A DNA stretch of 64,000 nucleotides from Bacteroidales bacterium (GTDB lineage: Bacteria > Bacteroidota > Bacteroidia > Bacteroidales > WCHB1-69): assembly GCA_017395245.1 (NCBI GenBank), contig JAFPVR010000010.1:65942-129941 (forward strand), given 5' to 3'. The first letter of the stretch is position 1; the number at the start of each line of letters is the position of its first letter. The notes under the pieces were generated by a model, which did no database searches, had not been told where the DNA came from, and saw only the letters and a list, made by a program, of their open reading frames with translations. A program made the translations under genes and the position numbers. This document shows positions 2,332 through 15,127 of this stretch, in pieces.

Positions 2332-2349
2332 CGGATGTGGAAATTTTCT

Positions 2350-2357
2350 TACTTTTG
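2350..2357 (+). promoter_or_regulatory. Bacteroidota-type -7 promoter box (TAnnTTTG)
   Basis: TACTTTTG, 24 nt upstream of the ATG at 2382. Confidence 0.5.
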
Positions 2358-2381
2358 CAAACTCAAAAATTACAGCGAACA

Positions 2382-3827
2382 ATGGCAACGATCATCGGCA
2401 GAAAACAGGAACAGAAGGAACTCCGCCGCCTATATGAATCAGACGAGGCGGAGATGGTGGTGGTGTATGGCCGCCGTCGTGTAGGCAAGACATACTTGGT
2501 GAACCAAACCTTCTCGGAATGTGGTTTCGATTTCAAAGTGACAGGTCTGTATAAGAAACGTATGCCCCTCCAACTGGAGAACTTTGCTTTGGCTCTTCGT
2601 GAATATGCGGGCAACAAGTCACTTCCGATTGCCAAAAACTGGATGGAGGCCTTCGGGCAGCTGAAAGAGTTTCTGAAGGCAACCCGTACAGGAGACAAGC
2701 GTGTGCTGTTTTTTGACGAATTGCCATGGATGGACACCCGAGGCAGCATGTTTCTAAGCGCTTTTGAATGGTTCTGGAATGGATGGGGGAGTGCACAGCA
2801 GGATCTGATGCTCATAGTGTGCGGCAGTGCCACCAATTGGATCATCAACAAGCTGTTCAAACAGAAAGGGGGGCTCTATAATCGAGCCGGCAGCAAGATG
2901 TTTCTCCGTCCTTTCACCCTTGCCGAGACAGAGCAGTATCTTTTCAAACAGGGCATTGAAATGGAACGGTATGACATCGCCCAAGCCTACATGATCATGG
3001 GAGGGATACCCTACTACCTCAAACAACTTGAGCCCGGACGCACGTTAGCCGACAACATAGACAACTGTTTTTTCAAGAAAAACGGGAAACTGTGGGATGA
3101 GTTCGACAATCTGTATGAGACGCTCTTCGACCAGTCGGAATACTACTTGCGCATTGTGGAGGCCCTGGCCGGAAAGAGAATTGGTTTAACCCGCGATGAA
3201 ATACTGACGCTGACAAAGTTGCCGGACAACGGGTTGACCTCCAATGCTTTGAAGGATCTGGTGAAATGCGGGTTCCTTCGGGTTTATCAGTACTATGGGC
3301 GAAAAAACAAAACACAAACCTACCAATTGGCCGACTTCTACACCCTGTTTTACCTGCAATTCATCAGGGAAAACTACGGGCAAGACGAGCACTTTTGGAC
3401 CCACATGCTGGACAACCCCAAGAAGAACAACTGGCTTGGATACAGCTTTGAACAGCTGGTGAAAGACCATATCGAACAGGTAAAGCGGGCATTGGGCATC
3501 GGTTCTGTGCTCACTCGCCAGTCCACTTGGTTTGCCGAAAAACGGGATGTTGACGATGACAATGCCACCGGTGCGCAAATAGACCTGCTCATCGACCGCA
3601 GGGATAAGGCCATCAACGTGTGCGAAGCGAAATTCTACAGCGGCGAGTTTACCATTGACAAAGACTATTCGCTCAATTTGCGCAACAAGATTACCGCATT
3701 CAAATCGGTGACAAAGACGCGCAAGGCTATTGTGCCGACGATGATCACCACCTTTGGTGTGAAGCATAATGCTTACAGTGGCAGTATTCAACAGGAAGTC
3801 ACGTTGGATGATCTATTCGAACGATAG
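2382..3827 (+). CDS. AAA ATPase, archaeal-ATPase/DUF234-type ATP-binding protein
   Basis: IGRKQEQKEL...GRRRVGKT (Walker A) and VLFFDELPW (Walker B-like). Paralog of 13679..15127. Start moved to MATIIGRK, downstream of the -7 box. Confidence 0.8.
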   Translation: MATIIGRKQEQKELRRLYESDEAEMVVVYGRRRVGKTYLVNQTFSECGFDFKVTGLYKKRMPLQLENFALALREYAGNKSLPIAKNWMEAFGQLKEFLKATRTGDKRVLFFDELPWMDTRGSMFLSAFEWFWNGWGSAQQDLMLIVCGSATNWIINKLFKQKGGLYNRAGSKMFLRPFTLAETEQYLFKQGIEMERYDIAQAYMIMGGIPYYLKQLEPGRTLADNIDNCFFKKNGKLWDEFDNLYETLFDQSEYYLRIVEALAGKRIGLTRDEILTLTKLPDNGLTSNALKDLVKCGFLRVYQYYGRKNKTQTYQLADFYTLFYLQFIRENYGQDEHFWTHMLDNPKKNNWLGYSFEQLVKDHIEQVKRALGIGSVLTRQSTWFAEKRDVDDDNATGAQIDLLIDRRDKAINVCEAKFYSGEFTIDKDYSLNLRNKITAFKSVTKTRKAIVPTMITTFGVKHNAYSGSIQQEVTLDDLFER

Positions 3828-4146
3828 CATTATCCCAAATCAGCCCATTGGGAATCAATGAGATAGGCTCAACAACGGCATAATCCAAATAATTTCTGCC
3901 AAGAATCTCGCCCCGATCGAAATGCGGTGGCAAACATCCAACTGCCGTGAGGATGGAGTTCCGCAAAAGTGTTGAACACCATGGAATGAATTGCAGGTCA
4001 AGATAAGGCCGTGCCCATCACATATCCGGCAACATCATGAGATGCTTTGGCGGCGAATCCACCAATGTCTTAGAACTTATTACAAAGCGTAAAATCGCGG
4101 AATACGGTTTCGGGAGTATTTTTGCATTTTAAATTAAGAACAAGGA

Positions 4147-4186
4147 CCGACGGAGCCGGATGGGATATAACGCGGCAAGAAAAAGA
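4147..4186 (+). repeat. 40-nt conserved module, copy 1 (CCGACGGAGCCGGATGGGATATAACGCGGCAAGAAAAAGA)
   Basis: Near-identical to 4418-4457 and 4739-4774. Contains GGAG, 4 nt, ATG, then 9 conserved codons (MGYNAARKR). Confidence 0.85.
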
Positions 4187-4345
4187 ATGATTGCACAAAT
4201 TTCCGAAACCATTGACAGTGAAGGCTATCACATTGTGTCAGCAGTGACCGAAGAAGGCAACGTGGCTGTCGAAAAGTATTATTATGAAAGCGATAAAGAA
4301 CGTGCCTATGAAAATGCGCAGCAAAGAGCATTAGACAAGGATTGA
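4160..4345 (+). CDS. small acidic hypothetical protein (61 aa) headed by repeat module 1
   Basis: ORF MGYNAARKRMIAQISETIDSEGYH... An in-frame alternative ATG lies at 4187. Coding status uncertain. Confidence 0.3.
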   Translation: MGYNAARKRMIAQISETIDSEGYHIVSAVTEEGNVAVEKYYYESDKERAYENAQQRALDKD

Positions 4346-4417
4346 TGATTACAATCGGAGATGGTCGTCCTTAACTACTGTATTGTGTCAGGGACGACCA
4401 CTTTTTACACAATTAAA

Positions 4418-4457
4418 CCGACGGAGCCGGATGGGATATAACGCGGCAAGAAAAAGA
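4418..4457 (+). repeat. 40-nt conserved module, copy 2
   Basis: Same sequence as 4147-4186, 271 nt downstream of copy 1. Confidence 0.85.
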
Positions 4458-4459
4458 TT

Positions 4460-4654
4460 ATGGGACTGTATTACGGAAAAGTATGCGATCCTTCCTGTTA
4501 CCATTTTCAAAAATGCGATTATTGTATGTCCAAAGGGTGGGCTGCAAGAACGTGTGGCGATAAGTTGTTCTGTAGGCAAAAATTTCGCTGTAAATACGCT
4601 CATCATAGTGTTAATACGACATCTACTAATAAATGTCAAAATATGAATATGTGA
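4460..4654 (+). CDS. Cys-rich small ORF (64 aa, 9 Cys) immediately after repeat module 2
   Basis: MGLYYGKVCDPSCYHFQKCDYCMSKGWAARTCGDKLFCRQKFRCKY... It is out of frame with the module ATG (4431), whose own frame gives the overlapping 4431..4646 ORF. Confidence 0.3.
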   Translation: MGLYYGKVCDPSCYHFQKCDYCMSKGWAARTCGDKLFCRQKFRCKYAHHSVNTTSTNKCQNMNM

Positions 4655-4738
4655 TCAGTCTTTTCGGTTAATAAGAGGGACTATACCAGAATATAATTAG
4701 GCAAGACCTGCGAAGCCGTAAGAGCAGGGTATAAAATG

Positions 4739-4774
4739 CCGACGGAGCTGGATGGGATATAACGCGGTAAAAAA
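4739..4774 (+). repeat. 40-nt conserved module, copy 3 (slightly diverged)
   Basis: CCGACGGAGCTGGATGGGATATAACGCGGTAAAAAA, 321 nt after copy 2. It heads a 29-codon ORF at 4752..4841. Confidence 0.8.
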
Positions 4775-4951
4775 TAATATGCAAAAGATTTGGATACAGT
4801 TATTGAGAAAGAGAACGAAGACGCTTTGCCTTTTGAAATGACGTTGACTTTGTTGGTGAACTAATGAAGAACCGATGATAGCATAGGGGCCCTATAAGTC
4901 AAAAGAGAATGTAAGTGTGCGATCAAGTGGGCATTAAGAGAAAAAATAAAA

Positions 4952-6022
4952 ATGAAAAATCTGTTAAATACATGTTGGTTGACCATAAATAGAGATTGCA
5001 ACATCAGATGTGATTTCTGTTATGCTCAAAACAAGTTGTTTAGTAAACGAGAAACAATGTCATTTGAAATGGCGCAATCATTGATAGATATAGCCATCTC
5101 AAATGGTGTGGCTACATTCTTTCTCTTAGGAGGGGAACCTACCCTTCATCCTGCTATTATTGATATTCTGAGTTATATTACAAATAGAGATCGGAAAATT
5201 ATCGTTGTGACCAATGGAATAAAATTGCAGGATGTTAGTTTTTGTGAGGCTATCTCTAGGATTAATCAATCACAACTGATTACTATAGCCATTGCATTGA
5301 AAGGTTCTTCTAATTTGGAATACAAAAAGCTTTGTGGTGTTCCTGCTTATGATAAAGTTTTAAAAGCTGTCGAGAATTGTAGGAAGTTTAATCTAAAATT
5401 GAATTTTTCTTTCGTTATTACGTCTGAAAACGTATATGATTTAGAACAAATAGCAAATAAACTAAAAAATGATGGTATAAATGAAACCATTAGTTTCTCA
5501 TACTGTCATGATATAATAATTAGGGACAAATTTGAAATATTGGATAAATTACATCCTATAGAAATTGATTCTGTTTTTTCTGACAAATATGATTATGTTG
5601 ATAAGGTGTTAGAATCAAATATCGCTTTTCATCAAACATTGCCGTTGTGTATGTGTAATAAAACAATGTTTGATAAGATGGTTTTGCGAAAACAGATTAC
5701 CACTGCTTGTCAATTGCAAAAAAAGAATTCTGTCATTTTTGACACCGACGGGGGGATTCTCTTGTGTAACCATGTGAATTATAGCATTGGTAAGTATTTG
5801 GAAGATTTTATAGATGCAGAATCTTTTAAGAAGTATTGGCTTTCAAGCAAAGTTGAGGAATTGTTCAAAAGAATAACTACGATGCCTTCGCGAAAATGTT
5901 TAAATTGTAAAGATAGACAATTATGCGGAGGTGGATGTTGTATACAGTGGTTTGCATCGGATTTCGAATCCTATAATAATTATTTATTAACAATAAAGTC
6001 AAATTTAAATGGAAAAGATTGA
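4952..6022 (+). CDS. radical SAM enzyme with C-terminal SPASM domain (peptide-modifying maturase type)
   Basis: CNIRCDFCY (CxxxCxxC) at residues 16-24. GGEPTLHP. C-terminal C-x14-GILLC and CLNCKDRQLCGGGC (Cx2Cx5Cx3C). AT-rich gene. Confidence 0.88.
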   Translation: MKNLLNTCWLTINRDCNIRCDFCYAQNKLFSKRETMSFEMAQSLIDIAISNGVATFFLLGGEPTLHPAIIDILSYITNRDRKIIVVTNGIKLQDVSFCEAISRINQSQLITIAIALKGSSNLEYKKLCGVPAYDKVLKAVENCRKFNLKLNFSFVITSENVYDLEQIANKLKNDGINETISFSYCHDIIIRDKFEILDKLHPIEIDSVFSDKYDYVDKVLESNIAFHQTLPLCMCNKTMFDKMVLRKQITTACQLQKKNSVIFDTDGGILLCNHVNYSIGKYLEDFIDAESFKKYWLSSKVEELFKRITTMPSRKCLNCKDRQLCGGGCCIQWFASDFESYNNYLLTIKSNLNGKD

Positions 6023-6134
6023 AGAATTATTAAAAACAAGGCAAGCGACAGAGATTTCATTTGATGTTGAAATCAAAGGAATCTCTAATGTTCATTTTGA
6101 TCTTTGTAATGGGAATGATTGCATTAATGATTAA
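6009..6134 (+). CDS. 41-aa candidate precursor peptide (not in the ORF track)
   Basis: ATG at 6009 overlaps the rSAM stop by 14 nt. Translation is MEKIEELLKTRQATEISFDVEIKGISNVHFDLCNGNDCIND, read codon by codon. A strong hairpin terminator follows. Confidence 0.45.
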   Translation: MEKIEELLKTRQATEISFDVEIKGISNVHFDLCNGNDCIND

Positions 6135-6180
6135 CACACAGTCGGTCAATACCTTTTAAAAGCGGATTGAAAGTTGTCAA

Positions 6181-6218
6181 CTGTGATCCATATCCTATGG
6201 ATCACAGAGTGTATTTTT
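6181..6218 (+). terminator. intrinsic terminator candidate after the small ORF
   Basis: Perfect 12-bp stem CTGTGATCCATA / TATGGATCACAG with a 3-nt loop, followed by AGTGTATTTTT. Confidence 0.55.
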
Positions 6219-6273
6219 CCCCTTCATGGAAATCAAAGAGAGTGTTTGTCCTTTGATTTAGTGGACTTGTTAA

Positions 6274-6310
6274 GGGGGAAGGTGGTGTTATATACCCGAC
6301 CTCCCCTTTT
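6274..6310 (+). terminator. second hairpin plus TTTT
   Basis: GGGGA(A)GGT ... ACCTCCCC stem with one bulge, then TTTT. Confidence 0.35.
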
Positions 6311-6388
6311 AATGGTCAATGTCAAAAGCACGTGTGTTTCACAATGATGATGGTATGTGCCCAATTCTTTTTTATAATAACAAAGACT

Positions 6389-6871
6389 ATGTCCAATGCC
6401 CTTTTAATAGTAGATGTCCAGAACGGCTTCATCAACGAAAAGACGAAGCACATCCCAATGCTTGTTGAAAAACTGCAGTACGACTATAACTTTGTTATAG
6501 TCACACGCTTCATCAACCTGCCAGATTCACCGTACAGAAAGCTAATCAAGTGGGAACATCTGTCTCCTGAGACGGATGAGGTGGAATTGGCTTTCAAACC
6601 GAAGGAGGGTGCCGTTATCATTGACAAATACATCTATTCCTGCATTGATGAACGTTTCATGCTTTTGTTAAAGGGAAATGGGATAGATGCGGTGGATATT
6701 TGTGGCATTGATACAGATATTTGCGTCACCAAATGTGCCGTGGATCTTTTCGAGCGGAACATTACGCCATACGTTTTGAAGGACTATTGCGCCACACATG
6801 CCGATGCGGATATTCAGGAGGCTGCGTTGGTGATATTGGCAAGATATATCGGAAAATCTCAAATCATTTGA
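6389..6871 (+). CDS. isochorismatase-family cysteine hydrolase (nicotinamidase-like)
   Basis: LLIVDVQNGF and ICGIDTDICVTKCA (catalytic Cys context). Start moved to MSNALLIVD. Confidence 0.8.
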   Translation: MSNALLIVDVQNGFINEKTKHIPMLVEKLQYDYNFVIVTRFINLPDSPYRKLIKWEHLSPETDEVELAFKPKEGAVIIDKYIYSCIDERFMLLLKGNGIDAVDICGIDTDICVTKCAVDLFERNITPYVLKDYCATHADADIQEAALVILARYIGKSQII

Positions 6872-6874
6872 TGT

Positions 6875-8032
6875 ATGGAAGCCTATTGTACTAGCATAAT
6901 CCCTGTTAAAGTCCCTAATGCGAAATTAACAAGGGAAATAATCAATATCTGCAAAAATCACCAGTTGCTGTCAGATTATTGCAATTATAGAGGGGCAATC
7001 AACCTGAAGGCTATTCCTGATATTAATATCAAGTCATTTGATTTCTACTATATCCCTTCCCCGAAAACAGATATCCAATGTGCTTTCAGTGAAAGTACGT
7101 TAACCCTTATCCTTACGTGGAAAAATACCTACAAAGATTACTGCTCTTTGGTGAATCAATCTTTGGAAGAGAGGAAAAAGCTCGTCAAAAGGGTTCTTGA
7201 GTATAAGCCGAAGGATGAAAAGCTTGTCCCATTCATGAAATTACTAGAGGAATATAGAAATAAAGGTTTGAGTATCAACTATGCATTTACTTTCTACTCG
7301 ATCTGCGACGAGAACTTTACAGAAGCATCCGAACAGCATTTGAAAGTGTTAGCGGAGCCTTCGGTGATCAATATGGACGATATGTTGTCTTCCTTGGGTA
7401 CATCTGTCCAGTATGATTCAAAGACCAAAATCAATAAGGAAATCTTGGAAACGATAAAAGATTTTGACCTCTATAGCGAACAAAAGACGTTCATAACCTG
7501 GGCATCCATTGTGTCGATGTCGAAAAGTAAAGAGATCTTTGTAAAAAATCATATTACATTGACACTAATGGAATTACTCATACAAAGGATATGGAATCTT
7601 TGTTATTCGCAAAACAATAGTCTGAACAATTGTATAACCAATATCAAGAAATGCTCCAAAGATATTAACAAAATCATCATTGACACCTATAGGATTTTAA
7701 TTGAATCCAAAAATTGTATTTCTGCCACCTATTCCAGCCGGTTGTCGGGCATCTATTCGGCAATTGTTGAATCCAGTCAGCTCCCCAAAAACATTGAAGA
7801 CTTGGAACAGAAACTCAATTATCTGATTGTGTTTACGAATAGCATCAACCAAAACAAGAACAGACGTTTGCAACAAGGTTCGGAAATATTACTCTTCCTT
7901 ATTGCTATCGCCCAGATTGTTCCTCTGTTTTTCAATCTCCCTATTGTAACTCATAATATGATTAGCATCGGGACAGTTGTCGGTATTTGTGTCTTGGGCG
8001 TGTTGTTGATACGGTCAAGATACCACAATTAG
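6875..8032 (+). CDS. hypothetical protein with a long helical region and a C-terminal two-TM hairpin (CorA-like topology, no GMN motif)
   Basis: Starts 3 nt after the hydrolase stop. C-terminus is EILLFLIAIAQIVPLFFNLPIVTHNMISIGTVVGICVLGVLLIRSRY. Very AT-rich. Confidence 0.55.
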   Translation: MEAYCTSIIPVKVPNAKLTREIINICKNHQLLSDYCNYRGAINLKAIPDINIKSFDFYYIPSPKTDIQCAFSESTLTLILTWKNTYKDYCSLVNQSLEERKKLVKRVLEYKPKDEKLVPFMKLLEEYRNKGLSINYAFTFYSICDENFTEASEQHLKVLAEPSVINMDDMLSSLGTSVQYDSKTKINKEILETIKDFDLYSEQKTFITWASIVSMSKSKEIFVKNHITLTLMELLIQRIWNLCYSQNNSLNNCITNIKKCSKDINKIIIDTYRILIESKNCISATYSSRLSGIYSAIVESSQLPKNIEDLEQKLNYLIVFTNSINQNKNRRLQQGSEILLFLIAIAQIVPLFFNLPIVTHNMISIGTVVGICVLGVLLIRSRYHN

Positions 8033-8102
8033 TCTGTTTTCCAAACTAACCATTTTGAACATTATTCCTCTTTAATACAAGAATTCGTTCGAGAATAACA
8101 GA

Positions 8103-8157: not shown

Positions 8158-9030
8158 ATGAAACCGATAAAAGCCATCCTTTTCATCTCGGCAATGTTGT
8201 TCGCAGCCTTGTTTTCCTCCTGCGGCAACAAACACAATAGCCAAACAGAGGCTAATATGCCCAAGTTTGAGCCGAAGTTTCCTCAAAAGAGCGTTTGGAT
8301 TCATTACAACAATTCCAACGATTCCATCGAAATAACTTTCTCTTCTATGGAAGAAGCAGAATGGAAGTTGATTCACGATGTTAAACAACATGATTTCTGC
8401 GAAGCCTTTGAAAAGGTCTTTTTGTCTGATCCTTCTTCTATGGATTATCCATTCGATTCTCTATTCCAAAACGAAAACCTTTGTGAAATACTTCTTCCTG
8501 TCAAATCTGATGATGGGAATGTGCGCTGTTTCGGACTCTATCCTCAAACCGCACATGAAATACCAACGATGATGACCTTTTACAAACTAAATGGTAAGGT
8601 GTACAAAGCAGAAGAATCAGAGCGAGCAGAGGATTGTTATTACTGCTTACGTCCGGATACTATATACACAATTAATAGTGACAAGTTCACAGTATACCTT
8701 GTTTGGGGATATTGCGGTTATACGGGCGAAGGTAATGGTTTCAAGTTGTCTGCTTACAAATTGGACAATACGGGATTACATCCTGCGTTTGTATTCGAAG
8801 ATGGTGACGGACAAAGTCTTTATACTCAAATCTGTACAAATGACGAAATGTTTGATGAGTTGGCAAAGGATCATTTCAGACCGCTAATCTATTTTGATAA
8901 AAATGAATCTGCAATCTATGCTCGAGTACTTGCAGAATGTGATAAAGGAAAAAGTGGGTGCTCTGCGAAAGTGACAAACCGTTATGAAAAATACGTTTGG
9001 AACGGGAAGAAGTTTGTGTTTAAGAAATAA
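8158..9030 (+). CDS. lipoprotein, unknown function (paralog of 10042..10989)
   Basis: Signal peptide plus lipobox ALFSSCGN. Shares IEITFSSMEEAEWKL and YKLDNTGLHPAFVFE blocks with the 10042 ORF. Confidence 0.7.
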   Translation: MKPIKAILFISAMLFAALFSSCGNKHNSQTEANMPKFEPKFPQKSVWIHYNNSNDSIEITFSSMEEAEWKLIHDVKQHDFCEAFEKVFLSDPSSMDYPFDSLFQNENLCEILLPVKSDDGNVRCFGLYPQTAHEIPTMMTFYKLNGKVYKAEESERAEDCYYCLRPDTIYTINSDKFTVYLVWGYCGYTGEGNGFKLSAYKLDNTGLHPAFVFEDGDGQSLYTQICTNDEMFDELAKDHFRPLIYFDKNESAIYARVLAECDKGKSGCSAKVTNRYEKYVWNGKKFVFKK

Positions 9031-10041: not shown

Positions 10042-10989
10042 ATGTCAAACAAAACCGAACCAATGTTCACCCCGCATTTTCCCAAAAAGAGCATCCGCCT
10101 TGCCCAAAACTCCCAAGAACCCATCGAAATGACCTTTTCGTCCATGGAGGAAGCGGAATGGAAACTGTTGAACGAAATACCAAGCCGCTATCTCTTTGAT
10201 GTACTGGGAAAAGTCCTCCATGAACTTTCGTCAATGGACTTTCCGTTCGATTTGCTTCAAAAAGAGGAAGCCATAAGCCCGATAGTCACCTCCGAAGACG
10301 GATTGGCACGTTTTATTGGGGTGCCCAACGACATTTTGCAATTGCCGCCATCCATGATTGTCCAATACAGACTCAACGGAGAGGCTCGTGTAGCTGGAGC
10401 CGAATTGGAGGAAACACGTTATTATTCCCTGTACCCCATCACCGTGGATGGTTTCAAAAAAGAGAATTCCACCTTGTATTATGTCTGGGGAAACTGCGAC
10501 TCAGGGAAGACCTGGATGGGGAGTAGAATGCGCGCCTACGAGTTGGATAGCAACGGGCTGCATCCAGCATTCCTATATGAAGGGGAAAACGCTCAGTCGC
10601 TTATAAGGGTCGATTATTTCAACATTGAAAATGAAGTGTCGGAAGCAATACACCACGAAACGCTAACCAAGGAGCAATGTTGCCACTTTTTATATTTGTC
10701 TGACGAGATGTTTGAAATTTCTCGTTATGCAAGTGTTTTGGCACGTGCAGCAGTTAGACAACAGCTGGGGCTCTTTTGGATTAACGAACAAAATGAGAAA
10801 AAGGTTGTTCTCAATCTCCAATATATGATTGACGAATTGCTCGATGCCACTGAAAAATTCGGACGGAATAGAGATTGGGATGAGTACCTCAGGGATGTCC
10901 CGGGAGTTCTATGCCATTATTACAGGGGTAAAGGTGATACGGAAAATTTGAAAAAGTATGCTGAAATTGCGAAGCGGTTCAAAAAATAG
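10042..10989 (+). CDS. paralog of the 8158 lipoprotein, lacking a signal peptide and carrying a different C-terminal half
   Basis: IEMTFSSMEEAEWKLLNEI and YELDSNGLHPAFLYE match 8158..9030. There is no hydrophobic N-terminus. Confidence 0.6.
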   Translation: MSNKTEPMFTPHFPKKSIRLAQNSQEPIEMTFSSMEEAEWKLLNEIPSRYLFDVLGKVLHELSSMDFPFDLLQKEEAISPIVTSEDGLARFIGVPNDILQLPPSMIVQYRLNGEARVAGAELEETRYYSLYPITVDGFKKENSTLYYVWGNCDSGKTWMGSRMRAYELDSNGLHPAFLYEGENAQSLIRVDYFNIENEVSEAIHHETLTKEQCCHFLYLSDEMFEISRYASVLARAAVRQQLGLFWINEQNEKKVVLNLQYMIDELLDATEKFGRNRDWDEYLRDVPGVLCHYYRGKGDTENLKKYAEIAKRFKK

Positions 10990-13678: not shown

Positions 13679-15127
13679 TTACGAACCTGTCCTCTCCTCA
13701 AAGATGTCATCAATAGTGATTTGGGTGGAGATGTGTTCGGAATAGGTGTTCCTCTGCATTCCGGCCGCTGTGATGAACGTCGGGATGATGCCGCCGGCGA
13801 AGGCGGTTTGCCTCCTGAACATCCCGATACGACTCATATACTTCTCGTATTCTTCTTTGTTGAGAATATAAGGTTCTTCGCTGTATTTCGCTTCACAGAG
13901 ATTGATCATGCGGTCGGCTCGTTCAATGATGATGTCGATCTGGGCTCGTTGCTGGTTTTCCGGGTCAATGCCATTCCAAGAATAATGTTCCGTTTTTATG
14001 CCATCAATTCCAAGAGCCTGTTTGATTTCTTGGATATGTGCGAGGCAAACGCGTTCGAATGACAGCCCTAACCAAGTGTTCACCTCGGGCGTGTTCAAAC
14101 TTTGTGTCCAAAAACGCTCGTTGCTGGTTCTGTTTTTCATAAACTGCAGATGGAAGATGGAGAAGAAATCCATCAGCTGGTATAGCCCTGAACGTGAAGA
14201 TATTTTTTTGTTCTTCACCCTGTAGAAGCGTACGATATCGCAGTCCACCAGATTCTGGAGCATCTTGGTCAGGTTCCCGTTGCTGTTTGTGCCCAACTCT
14301 TTGGCAATCTCATCACGAGTCATCCCTTTTTTCTTTTTGAAAAGTGTTTCTACAATGCTGATGTATGGGTCGGGGCTCGCAAATAGAGTTTTATAGAGCC
14401 TCCGGAATTCACGGCGCATTTCACCGCTTTGCTGGAAACAGAGCCTGTCGATGTTTTGCGCAAGGCTGTCTGCCTTGTTAAGGAGGCTGAGGTAGTAGGG
14501 TATTCCACCCATTACCATATAGGTCTGTAGAATCATCAGTCGGTCCCACGGAAATCCGTATTCGACCAAATATTCTTCCGTTTCATGAAGGTTGAATTCT
14601 TTGAGATGAATCTCGTGTGTGATGCGGTCGTGCAAGCCTCCGTGACTGTCAATGACATTCTTCATCATCCATGAAGTGGAAGAACCGCAGACGATGAGCA
14701 GAAAGTTCTCTTGCGTTGATGCCCAACTGTTCCAGAAATGTCCCAATGCTTTTGTGAAATCCGACTTTCTTGTGTCAAAACACGGTAATTCATCAATGAA
14801 AACGACACAAGGGGTGGATTGTCCCATTCTTAGGGACAGAAAATGTCGCAATATTTGAAAAGCCTCATACCAATCCTTTGGAATCTCCTTGCCCTCGCAT
14901 CCATATAAGTCCAGTGCGTCTGTAAAAGCGTGAATTTGAGCTTTCTTGTCTCCGTCCAGAATCCCTGTCATGGAGAATGTCAGCCTGTTTTCAAAGACAT
15001 GATTGACCAGAAAAGTCTTCCCCACACGCCGCCGTCCGTACAATGCCACAAATTCGGCTCTGCCTGAGGCTGCGTATTGTTCCAACAACCTGATTTCCTG
15101 TTTTCGTCCGATAATTTTTGAGTGCAT
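13679..15127 (-). CDS. AAA ATPase, archaeal-ATPase/DUF234-type ATP-binding protein
   Basis: MHSKIIGRKQEIRLLE...GRRRVGKT and VVFIDELPC. Collinear with 2382..3827 along its whole length. Confidence 0.8.
   Translation of the reverse strand: MHSKIIGRKQEIRLLEQYAASGRAEFVALYGRRRVGKTFLVNHVFENRLTFSMTGILDGDKKAQIHAFTDALDLYGCEGKEIPKDWYEAFQILRHFLSLRMGQSTPCVVFIDELPCFDTRKSDFTKALGHFWNSWASTQENFLLIVCGSSTSWMMKNVIDSHGGLHDRITHEIHLKEFNLHETEEYLVEYGFPWDRLMILQTYMVMGGIPYYLSLLNKADSLAQNIDRLCFQQSGEMRREFRRLYKTLFASPDPYISIVETLFKKKKGMTRDEIAKELGTNSNGNLTKMLQNLVDCDIVRFYRVKNKKISSRSGLYQLMDFFSIFHLQFMKNRTSNERFWTQSLNTPEVNTWLGLSFERVCLAHIQEIKQALGIDGIKTEHYSWNGIDPENQQRAQIDIIIERADRMINLCEAKYSEEPYILNKEEYEKYMSRIGMFRRQTAFAGGIIPTFITAAGMQRNTYSEHISTQITIDDIFEERTGS

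Follow-up and report, generated by a model that had tools for sequence, protein, structure and literature searches.

A two-gene radical SAM/SPASM enzyme and peptide cassette in a Bacteroidales genome as a probable minimal RiPP system

INTRODUCTION

A stretch of 64,000 nucleotides from a gut Bacteroidales genome (contig JAFPVR010000010.1), which we refer to in its full length as the window, carries a gene for a 356-residue radical S-adenosylmethionine (SAM) enzyme and, starting within the last codons of this gene, an open reading frame (ORF) of 41 codons for a short Cys-containing peptide. We are confident that the two products are the enzyme and the substrate of a pathway to a peptide that is made on the ribosome and modified after translation (RiPP). 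The explanation that we consider probable is a minimal two-gene RiPP cassette in which the leader of the peptide is recognised directly and a Cys-Asp thioether is the likeliest modification; that the product indeed contains thioethers between Cys and Asp or Asn is, judged by analogy with characterised maturases, a proposition with slightly less than an even chance. From its sequence the cassette would work like a ranthipeptide or sactipeptide system, yet it is a member of no curated family. We describe it as belonging to an uncharacterised radical SAM/SPASM RiPP family without a RiPP recognition element (RRE), of which the window holds the most reduced form with two genes and a 13-residue core bearing two Cys.

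Radical SAM/SPASM maturases are a main source of new peptide chemistry, and surveys for them on a large scale have relied on the RRE domain; a compendium of ~15,000 enzymes, for instance, was limited to RRE-associated proteins (PMC10288494). The family described here has neither an RRE nor a curated model and so would presumably go unnoticed in screens based on the RRE. It is nevertheless widespread, occurring in Bacteroidales and Firmicutes of the gut and in the candidate phyla radiation (CPR)/Saccharibacteria. The family is not described in the searchable full-text literature; closed-access catalogues, such as a 'bioinformatic atlas' of radical SAM RiPPs in the Journal of the American Chemical Society of 2022, are outside this scope, so that a prior mention is possible.

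RESULTS AND DISCUSSION

The 41-codon reading frame is a conserved gene

On the evidence of sequence comparison the 41-codon ORF, which translates as MEKIEELLKTRQATEISFDVEIKGISNVHFDLCNGNDCIND, is a real and conserved gene. Four independent lines support this: orthologues, a coding signature, homology detected with a leader hidden Markov model (HMM) and adjacency to the enzyme gene throughout the family. In both of the nearest enzyme lineages (68–71% identical) a 40-codon ORF comes after the enzyme gene, MKELEQLLNTRQATELSFDVEIKGITNVHFDICNGNDCIS and MKDLQNLLRTRQAVGKSFDVAIVGITCTHFDLCNGNDCIS, respectively. A gap of 127 nt separates enzyme and peptide gene in one of these relatives and a 4-nt ATGA overlap joins them in the other, so that the ORF was kept while its junction with the enzyme gene changed. 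The core HFD[LI]CNGNDCI is almost invariant in the three lineages, with 2–4 core codons differing synonymously versus 1–2 with a change of residue. Over 39 aligned codons, each pair of ORFs shows 10–15 synonymous-only and 8–14 residue-changing differences, and the other two reading frames of the aligned small ORFs contain stops. The conservation beside homologous enzymes that the sequence-only reading of this DNA had left to be established is thus found in sequence, position and coding signature.

Eight peptides encoded beside 40–47% identical enzymes contributed their leader parts, and nothing else, to the leader HMM; the window and its two closest relatives were left out. When all 1,744 stop-to-stop segments from the six frames of the window (64 kb) were searched, this HMM returned the ORF at 6009 as sole match (E = 2.2e-13, 46.8 bits), the next best segment having an E-value of 0.52. 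Adjacency was evaluated in 124 loci with a delimitable enzyme gene by asking whether the enzyme gene is immediately adjoined by a short ORF on the same strand whose 30 C-terminal residues include at least three Cys; the expectation was derived from the rate of such ORFs elsewhere in the same loci. A Cys-rich short ORF adjoins the enzyme in 78 of the 124 loci versus ~20% expected (P ~1e-25).

ENA/Logan assemblies have a gene call for the peptide on 28 contigs, whereas NCBI does not list it, and it carries no name anywhere; its relatives are annotated as 'hypothetical protein' at best. A word-indexed protein search with the 41-residue peptide found only itself. At E ≤ 10, no NCBIfam family of any kind, presumably including the model of the SCIFF peptides as part of this library, matched the window peptide or nine of its relatives, and Pfam and NCBIfam scans of 10–20 peptides yielded nothing meaningful.

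The enzyme is assigned to the radical SAM/SPASM type and has no N-terminal RRE domain

Judged by its sequence and its predicted structure, the enzyme is of the radical SAM/SPASM type without an N-terminal RRE domain. The motif CNIRCDFCY, already seen near the N-terminus when only the letters were read, occupies residues 16–24 (C16-N-I-R-C20-D-F-C23-Y), and PF04055 matches with an E-value of 1.7e-21 (77.5 bits versus a cut-off of 29.5). In alignments of 27 and 42 sequences the SAM-binding motif G60-G61-E62-P63 is invariant, as are ten Cys (3 + 7), namely C16/C20/C23 and C233, C253, C272, C316, C319, C325 and C329; C330 is found in most close relatives and is not invariant. The SPASM motif of Haft and Basu (2011) reportedly reads CX9-15GX4C - gap - CX2CX5CX3C - gap - C. 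The C-terminal Cys pattern of the window enzyme is C253-x14-GILLC272 and C316LNC319KDRQLC325GGGC329. Within the family, C253-X13-G-X4-C272 and C316-X2-C319-X5-C325-X3-C329 are invariant, the final post-gap SPASM Cys is absent and C233 makes seven.

The cysteines cited from the sequence alone as a SPASM pattern are present, six of the seven SPASM Cys positions being occupied, and the corresponding Pfam model PF13186 does not recognise the enzyme. This model is also missing from the precomputed Pfam lists of 45 close relatives; more distant homologues (P0046–P0051) carry it. The only Pfam matches of the enzyme are Radical_SAM and Fer4_12. With PF13186 silent, we assign the enzyme to the SPASM type because of the Cys pattern, the alignment to CteB, SuiB and the anaerobic sulfatase-maturating enzyme (anSME), and the predicted fold. 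No curated Pfam or NCBIfam family fits the enzyme, each NCBIfam match lying far under its cut-off; full-length matches were obtained for anSME (62 of 349 bits), PapB (60.6 of 340), ScmF and GeoRSP. In an NCBIfam scan of 42 relatives from many phyla none scored above threshold; the best E-value was 3e-30, on generic cores, and the best on the PapB model NF047865 was 1.3e-23. The NCBI name of the enzyme is only 'radical SAM protein' (MBQ3732719.1).

The AlphaFold2 (AF2) model (pLDDT 88.3, pTM 0.88) begins at the first barrel strand (residues 7–13) and places a β-hairpin at 260–270 (260–263/268–270) between C253 and C272. Best matches in Foldseek were anSME and SuiB, with E-values from 5e-14 to 1e-12 and template modelling (TM) scores of 0.66–0.70. 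A family profile searched against the PDB matched SuiB (1.3e-23), CteB (7.3e-23) and anSME (5.9e-18), and the best match in a single-sequence PDB search was anSME (E = 5e-11). The alignments with SuiB and CteB begin at chain residues 137 and 93, past their RRE domains. Because of these starting points, and because the radical SAM motif starts at C16 and the first barrel strand lies at residues 7–13, the enzyme has no RRE at its N-terminus.

Window residues C253/C272/C329 align with C344/C362/C413, the ligands of auxiliary cluster 1 (AC1) in CteB, and C316/C319/C325 with the AC2 ligands C400/C403/C409 (CteB ligand numbering from PMC10177961). By homology with CteB, PapB and anSME, two auxiliary clusters held by the seven further Cys are predicted for the window enzyme.

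An assignment as anaerobic sulfatase maturase was considered and rejected: the enzyme reaches 62.4 bits with TIGR03942 versus a cut-off of 349.45, and SuiB and CteB outrank anSME with the family profile. Of the 42 family members scanned, 25 reach E ≤ 1e-10 with TIGR03942, the best value (7.6e-18) being at the level of the generic core. The 17 kb surrounding the enzyme gene contain no sulfatase domain, and the adjacent peptide lacks C/S-x-P/A-x-R, the motif of anSME substrates. The enzyme thus does not group with the anaerobic sulfatase maturases, a placement that the sequence-only reading had named as fatal to its proposal.

Leader, cores and the wider family

A leader motif, LLxxRxAT[ND/E][IL]xF...I.G[IV], is common to the clade of the window, and the putative boundary between leader and core lies at approximately residue 28/29. 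The LLxxRxAT leader defines this clade; related RxAT leaders are found in distant phyla (L013, L035, L111). In the window core, which has 13 residues and two Cys, the fewest among the cores examined, C33-NGN-D37 constitutes a Cys-X3-Asp motif that is identical in the two closest lineages. Cores vary from CNGNDC (window) and CDCDCTxxGNCNCSRCDW to (CDC)n with up to 26 Cys, CGACGACGAC and ICDCDxxGxCC (CPR); the core of one relative reads, for example, CDCDCTAAGNCNCSRCDW. Family cores are composed of 29.7% Cys, 15.8% Asp, 10.7% Gly and 5.8% Asn. The dominant Cys spacing is C-X-C, where X is Asp in 95 cases and Asn in 37, and of 74 cores 67 contain at least one of these two residues.

When 1.84 billion representative proteins were searched with a profile, 559 clusters were obtained at E ≤ 1e-30 versus 32,455 at 1e-10, by which the family is well separated; its size of ~560 clusters refers to clustering at 50% identity. 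Hosts include Bacteroidales (Paludibacteraceae, Muribaculaceae), many Clostridia, Erysipelotrichaceae, Bacilli and many CPR/Saccharibacteria. The general RiPP layout of a conserved leader, a variable core and a precursor beside its modifying enzyme is displayed by the family, with the adjacency counted above (78/124 loci).

Three arrangements in relatives were noted in addition. In 21 loci of CPR/Saccharibacteria the order is enzyme, peptide (L..LYKG..L....PV.G.KP....ICDCD..G.CC) and a conserved protein of ~204 residues annotated without function, which is unrelated to anything in the window (L027, L047, L052, L055-L057, L060, L063, L064, L066, L067, L069, L073, L074 and others). A distant branch (25–29% identity) has no adjacent Cys-rich ORF and always stands behind genes for a ~779-residue UvrA-like ATP-binding cassette (ABC) ATPase and a protein of ~335–470 residues (38–40 loci, among them L034, L037, L041, L044, L046, L054, L061, L062, L065, L068 and L071), which suggests a different, non-RiPP role for this peptide-less branch. 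In L009 (7009-8258), L010 (7020-8281) and L023 (7032-8125) an ORF running from the enzyme stop codon encodes a protein of 360–420 residues with a leader-like N-terminus, in L023 with a (CNCDC)n stretch past residue 40; these long ORFs may be leader-core modules fused to larger proteins.

Proposed maturation and alternative explanations

In the proposed reaction the 41-residue precursor would be bound through its conserved leader (LLxxRxATxIxF...IxGI) by the enzyme encoded upstream; with neither an RRE domain in the enzyme nor an RRE protein encoded nearby, recognition would have to be direct. The short C-terminal core HFDLCNGNDCIND would be the part modified. A [4Fe-4S] cluster on C16/C20/C23 would cleave SAM, with two auxiliary clusters on the seven invariant Cys, and the resulting 5′-deoxyadenosyl radical would remove hydrogen from a residue of the core. 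An intramolecular thioether would then be closed by the thiolate of a core Cys, probably bound to an auxiliary cluster, with a change of -2 Da per link. The prime candidate is a link from C33 to the β-carbon of D37, and C38 would make the second.

We regard radical thioether chemistry as likeliest because it is what the closest characterised relatives with Cys-rich peptide substrates carry out, and because Cys is accompanied chiefly by Asp and Asn in the family cores. A Cys-Asp thioether in particular is likeliest because C33-N-G-N-D37 matches the CX3D motif of PapB. PapB joins Cys S to Asp Cβ in CX3D motifs, has CSAND as minimal substrate and tolerates CXnD with n = 0–6 (PMC9413430). In CteB/PapB/Tte1186 AC1 has an open site to which the Cys of the substrate binds (PMC10177961), and S-Cβ links from Cys to Asn are known (PMC11002830). 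The reading of the locus as RiPP-like, made originally from the letters, holds with the conserved pair and with an enzyme that is no anSME; the class, be it sactipeptide, ranthipeptide or another, is not fixed by this.

Several observations weigh against a Cys-Asp-linking RiPP cassette. The enzyme has no RRE domain, which is typical of sacti- and ranthi-synthases, and PF13186 gives no match to it even at E ≤ 1. It stays far under the cut-offs of the thioether maturases PapB (NF047865, 60.6 vs 340 bits), StsB (55.6 vs 625) and AlbA (41 vs 850). The fourth AC2 ligand of CteB, C432, has no conserved counterpart, and the family has an extra invariant C233. D41 is absent in the two closest relatives, so the partner of C38 is ambiguous. 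Some family cores, such as CGACGACGAC and GPCSACGAC, contain neither Asp nor Asn, so a Cys-Asp linkage cannot be the universal reaction of the family. The gene junction varies from the 14-nt overlap of the window to the ATGA overlap and the 127-nt gap of its two closest relatives, and genes for a protease, an exporter or immunity are not conserved alongside the pair.

The Asp-free cores lead directly to the alternative with the best standing, a RiPP cassette whose enzyme performs another radical reaction on the core: a sactionine (S to Cα), anSME-like oxidation of Cys Cβ to formylglycine or thioaldehyde, epimerisation, a C-C or C-O cross-link, or undescribed C-X-C chemistry. We hold this to be unlikely, while giving it appreciable weight. 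Cys is the only residue common to all cores, and cores of the CGACGACGAC type fit Cα- or Cys-centred chemistry better. The enzyme closest by single-sequence search and by fold, anSME, abstracts a Cys Cβ hydrogen and likewise does so without an RRE, the best profile match, SuiB, is a C-C cross-linker, and no curated family fits the window enzyme. Against such a reaction stand the strong enrichment of Asp and Asn next to Cys and the exact fit of the window core to CX3D; for anSME-like oxidation in particular, the C/S-x-P/A-x-R motif is missing from the peptide and membership in the anSME family fails. A further idea, put forward tentatively and on the whole doubtful, is that the family forms an unnamed class which combines LLxxRxAT recognition without RRE or partner protein with undescribed chemistry on C-X-C repeats. 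Such chemistry may consist of consecutive-thioether ladders or of a Cys-centred transformation that also takes place on Asp-free cores such as CGACGAC. The two-Cys window peptide would in that case be the simplest natural substrate for working out the reaction.

It is improbable that the peptide is no substrate at all, serving instead as a Cys-rich metal- or Fe-S-binding partner (metallothionein- or ferredoxin-like), scaffold or regulator while the true substrate lies elsewhere. C-X-C repeats with Asp do resemble metal-binding motifs, the pair is unaccompanied by protease or exporter, and the peptide-less branch behind the UvrA-like gene uses the fold without such a peptide. A metal-binding partner would, however, be expected to keep its ligand geometry, and the family shows the classic RiPP layout of conserved leader and hypervariable core with a Cys count from 2 (window) to 26; the two Cys of the window core are too few for a cluster, and the nearest characterised relatives are peptide-modifying enzymes.

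More improbable still is a cassette within an anti-phage defence island that makes an antiviral effector, like the prokaryotic viperins, and not a secreted peptide natural product. A match to the candidate defence protein PDC-S27 (2337-3827) lies 1.1 kb upstream of the cassette, a 43% identical homologue is found 3 kb from the cassette in L173, BrxL and an integrase are near the cassette in L174, and the radical SAM core matches prokaryotic viperin (pVip) models at E = 3e-17. The pVip match is limited to the generic radical SAM core (residues 11–174), though, with 50.8 vs 180 bits on the NCBIfam viperin model; PDC-S27 is absent from L176 and L177, strains that keep the cassette, and across loci the pair is accompanied by no conserved defence gene. 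The peptide would, moreover, still need to be a substrate. Finally, a chance frame beside a housekeeping SPASM enzyme such as anSME, suggested by anSME as best single-sequence PDB match (E = 5e-11) and by the failure of the SPASM HMM and all specific families to give a positive family assignment, is refuted by the conservation of the ORF, purifying selection on it and its homology to peptides beside distant relatives, together with 62 vs 349 bits on TIGR03942 and no sulfatase nearby.

Comparison with characterised maturases

Among the known systems close to a minimal RiPP cassette with a Cys-Asp thioether is that of the ranthipeptide maturase PapB, the enzyme acting on the freyrasin precursor PapA. 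Both are radical SAM enzymes with seven C-terminal Cys, the auxiliary clusters being a prediction in the window enzyme, and both are paired with leader-bearing peptides rich in Cys and Asp; the minimal PapB substrate CSAND compares with CNGND in the window, and the tolerance of PapB for n = 0–6 would cover the CDC repeats of the family. PapB differs by binding its leader with an RRE and by a radical SAM motif from C119 (PMC10177961), whereas the window motif starts at C16 without an RRE. Its leader is unrelated, and its fourth AC2 ligand is not conserved in the window family.

CteB/Tte1186 are the maturases of SCIFF peptides (thermocellin-type ranthipeptides); with the family profile CteB is the second-best solved relative (E = 7e-23) and aligns over the whole radical SAM-SPASM body. 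Six of seven auxiliary-cluster Cys of CteB align one to one with the window enzyme, both substrates are Cys-rich, and the CteB gene cluster is simple. CteB has an N-terminal RRE, so the alignment starts at its residue 93, and it links Cys to Thr Cγ (PMC11002830), whereas Thr is not a feature of window-family cores. Peptides of the window type differ from SCIFF peptides in matching no NCBIfam peptide model.

anSME resembles the window enzyme in length (~360–370 residues), in combining radical SAM and SPASM parts without an RRE and in acting on a Cys within a peptide chain; it is the best single-sequence PDB match and the top Foldseek match (TM 0.66). Identity is only 18%, however, a dedicated co-evolving peptide partner exists only on the window side, and in an alignment judged by eye C261, which we take to be the second AC1 ligand of anSME (4K36-39 structures), is apparently unmatched by a window Cys. 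SuiB, the streptide maturase, is the best PDB profile match (E = 1.3e-23, TM 0.70) and is likewise encoded in small operons of a radical SAM enzyme with a short peptide. It differs in having an RRE (alignment from its residue 137) and in making a Lys-Trp C-C bond, whereas the window core contains neither Trp nor Lys. QhpD makes thioether cross-links in the γ subunit of quinohemoprotein amine dehydrogenase and is encoded within the amine dehydrogenase operon; no genes of such an operon are found near the window cassette. Streptococcal RaS-RiPP systems include a transporter and quorum-sensing regulators, neither of which is present at the window cassette. Among their maturases, those of the NxxcB type introduce S-Cβ links from Cys to Asn and provide a precedent for Asn as acceptor (PMC11002830).

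The window cassette offers a convenient test case for leader recognition by a SPASM enzyme without an RRE and for the reaction on Cys/Asp-rich cores. Should a small bicyclic thioether peptide be formed, the enzyme might find use in peptide cyclisation, as PapB already does.

Layout of the two-gene unit

Table 1. Positions of the cassette features in the window
Feature	Position	Strand	Description and evidence
Radical SAM / SPASM-type peptide maturase gene	4952..6022	+	356 aa; ORF, motifs, PF04055, alignments, AF2 model, Foldseek
Precursor peptide gene	6009..6134	+	41 aa + stop; leader HMM, orthologues, coding signature
Leader part of peptide (putative extent)	6009..6092	+	~residues 1-28, MEKIEELLKTRQATEISFDVEIKGISNV; leader alignment and HMM
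Core part of peptide (putative extent)	6093..6131	+	~residues 29-41, HFDLCNGNDCIND; Cys = C33, C38
Intrinsic-terminator-like hairpin and T run	6181..6218	+	terminator scan, RNA fold z-score

The peptide gene begins with an ATG located within the final codons of the enzyme gene; counting the TGA stop of the enzyme at 6020-6022, the two genes share 14 nt. Translational coupling had been read from this overlap; the overlap itself is there, is not kept in relatives, and suggests coupling. A hairpin with T run had likewise been noted behind the peptide gene and is present: CTGTGATCCATA-TCC-TATGGATCACAG at 6181-6207 makes a 12-bp stem without mismatch and a 3-nt loop, and AGTGTATTTTT comes directly after it. 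It starts 47 nt past the peptide stop codon, closes the two-gene unit and was returned as terminator-like by the scan; its RNA fold z-score is -2.66, beaten by only 1 of 200 shuffles. A search of 3800-6700 against Rfam gave no match, and a scan for sigma-70 promoters was not above the shuffled expectation, the sigma-70 model being unsuited to Bacteroidales anyway. The enzyme and peptide genes are probably transcribed together, ending at the hairpin. The GC content is 0.29–0.36 across ~4750-6250 versus 0.45–0.54 in the flanks. The AT-rich island described earlier is thus real, though larger than the enzyme and peptide genes, since the low-GC stretch extends to ~9000.

Genomic neighbourhood

Only the enzyme-peptide pair is conserved in the clade of the window. 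In an all-against-all clustering of neighbours from the 124 loci, no family including a window gene recurred in at least four loci. Within the close clade a single neighbour of the window cassette recurs, the PDC-S27-type ATPase, and it does so in only one further locus (L173). The cassette of the window adjoins an isochorismatase-family protein and proteins without domains; in agreement with the initial reading, no neighbouring gene has a protease or transporter domain. The isochorismatase-family hydrolase (6389-6871) and a 385-residue domain-less protein (6875-8032) follow the cassette and stay linked to it in all strains of the species, even with different flanks (block ~4050-8034). We considered these two genes as parts of the cassette and rejected them, as they are absent from the loci of the 68–71% identical relatives. 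The 385-residue protein has, as read from its sequence, two hydrophobic segments at its C-terminal end.

Close relatives adjoin transposases, an integrase and conjugative-transposon genes, surroundings that fit the low-GC island of the window. An empty site was not found, each contig with the downstream neighbour also having the cassette, and plasmid and phage collections contained no homologue at E ≤ 1e-20.

Other genes were seen beside the cassette in relatives. A family of ~245 residues without Pfam domains occurs in three loci of the window's clade (L090 1209-1937 and 3504-4256, L174 6296-7024, L001 8570-9304); the window has no member of it, and it bears no relation to the ~204-residue CPR partner (hhalign probability 0.2). 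L090 additionally has a second radical SAM gene (365 residues) upstream. In L172 (1-4681, Firmicutes) the cassette stands with an AgrB homologue, a helix-turn-helix (HTH) regulator, a 519-residue radical SAM enzyme, a Bacteriocin_CLOSPO-01332 peptide and an ABC transporter, which looks like a RiPP and quorum-sensing neighbourhood.

Just upstream of the radical SAM gene a 41-nt direct repeat, ACCGACGGAGCCGGATGGGATATAACGCGGCAAGAAAAAGA, is present three times (4146-4186, 4417-4457 and 4738-4778), with none expected by chance. The ATG within each copy starts a short ORF (MGYNAARKR...) that differs from copy to copy, similarity ends at 41 nt, Rfam gave no match to the repeat, and it is found in this species only. 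In the strains L179 and L181 precisely the 271 nt that separate copies 1 and 2 are missing, from which it follows that the repeat copies recombine. A second element, CCCTTTTAATAGTAGATGTC with variants, brackets both genes, in direct orientation at 6304-6323 and 6399-6418 and inverted at 4618-4633 (16 nt, 94% complementary); with a rough expectation of ~0.05–0.2 this may be chance in AT-rich DNA.

The PDC-S27 match upstream (2337-3827, + strand) is a 496-residue ATPase_2/AAA protein that matches the PADLOC candidate over its full length (E = 2e-194), and a paralogue lies at 13679-15127 (- strand). An operon further upstream (14-2275) comprises a Ser/Thr protein kinase, located on the contig before the window start, two domain-less proteins, a PP2C-type phosphatase (506-1948) and a small HTH protein (1985-2275) with a weak capH-like match. 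Downstream of the cassette, 8158-9030 and 10042-10989 encode paralogous domain-less proteins (290 and 315 residues) that share (I/M)TFSSMEEAEWKL and NGLHPAF; the product of 8158-9030 has an N-terminal hydrophobic segment followed by a Cys and appears lipoprotein-like by eye.

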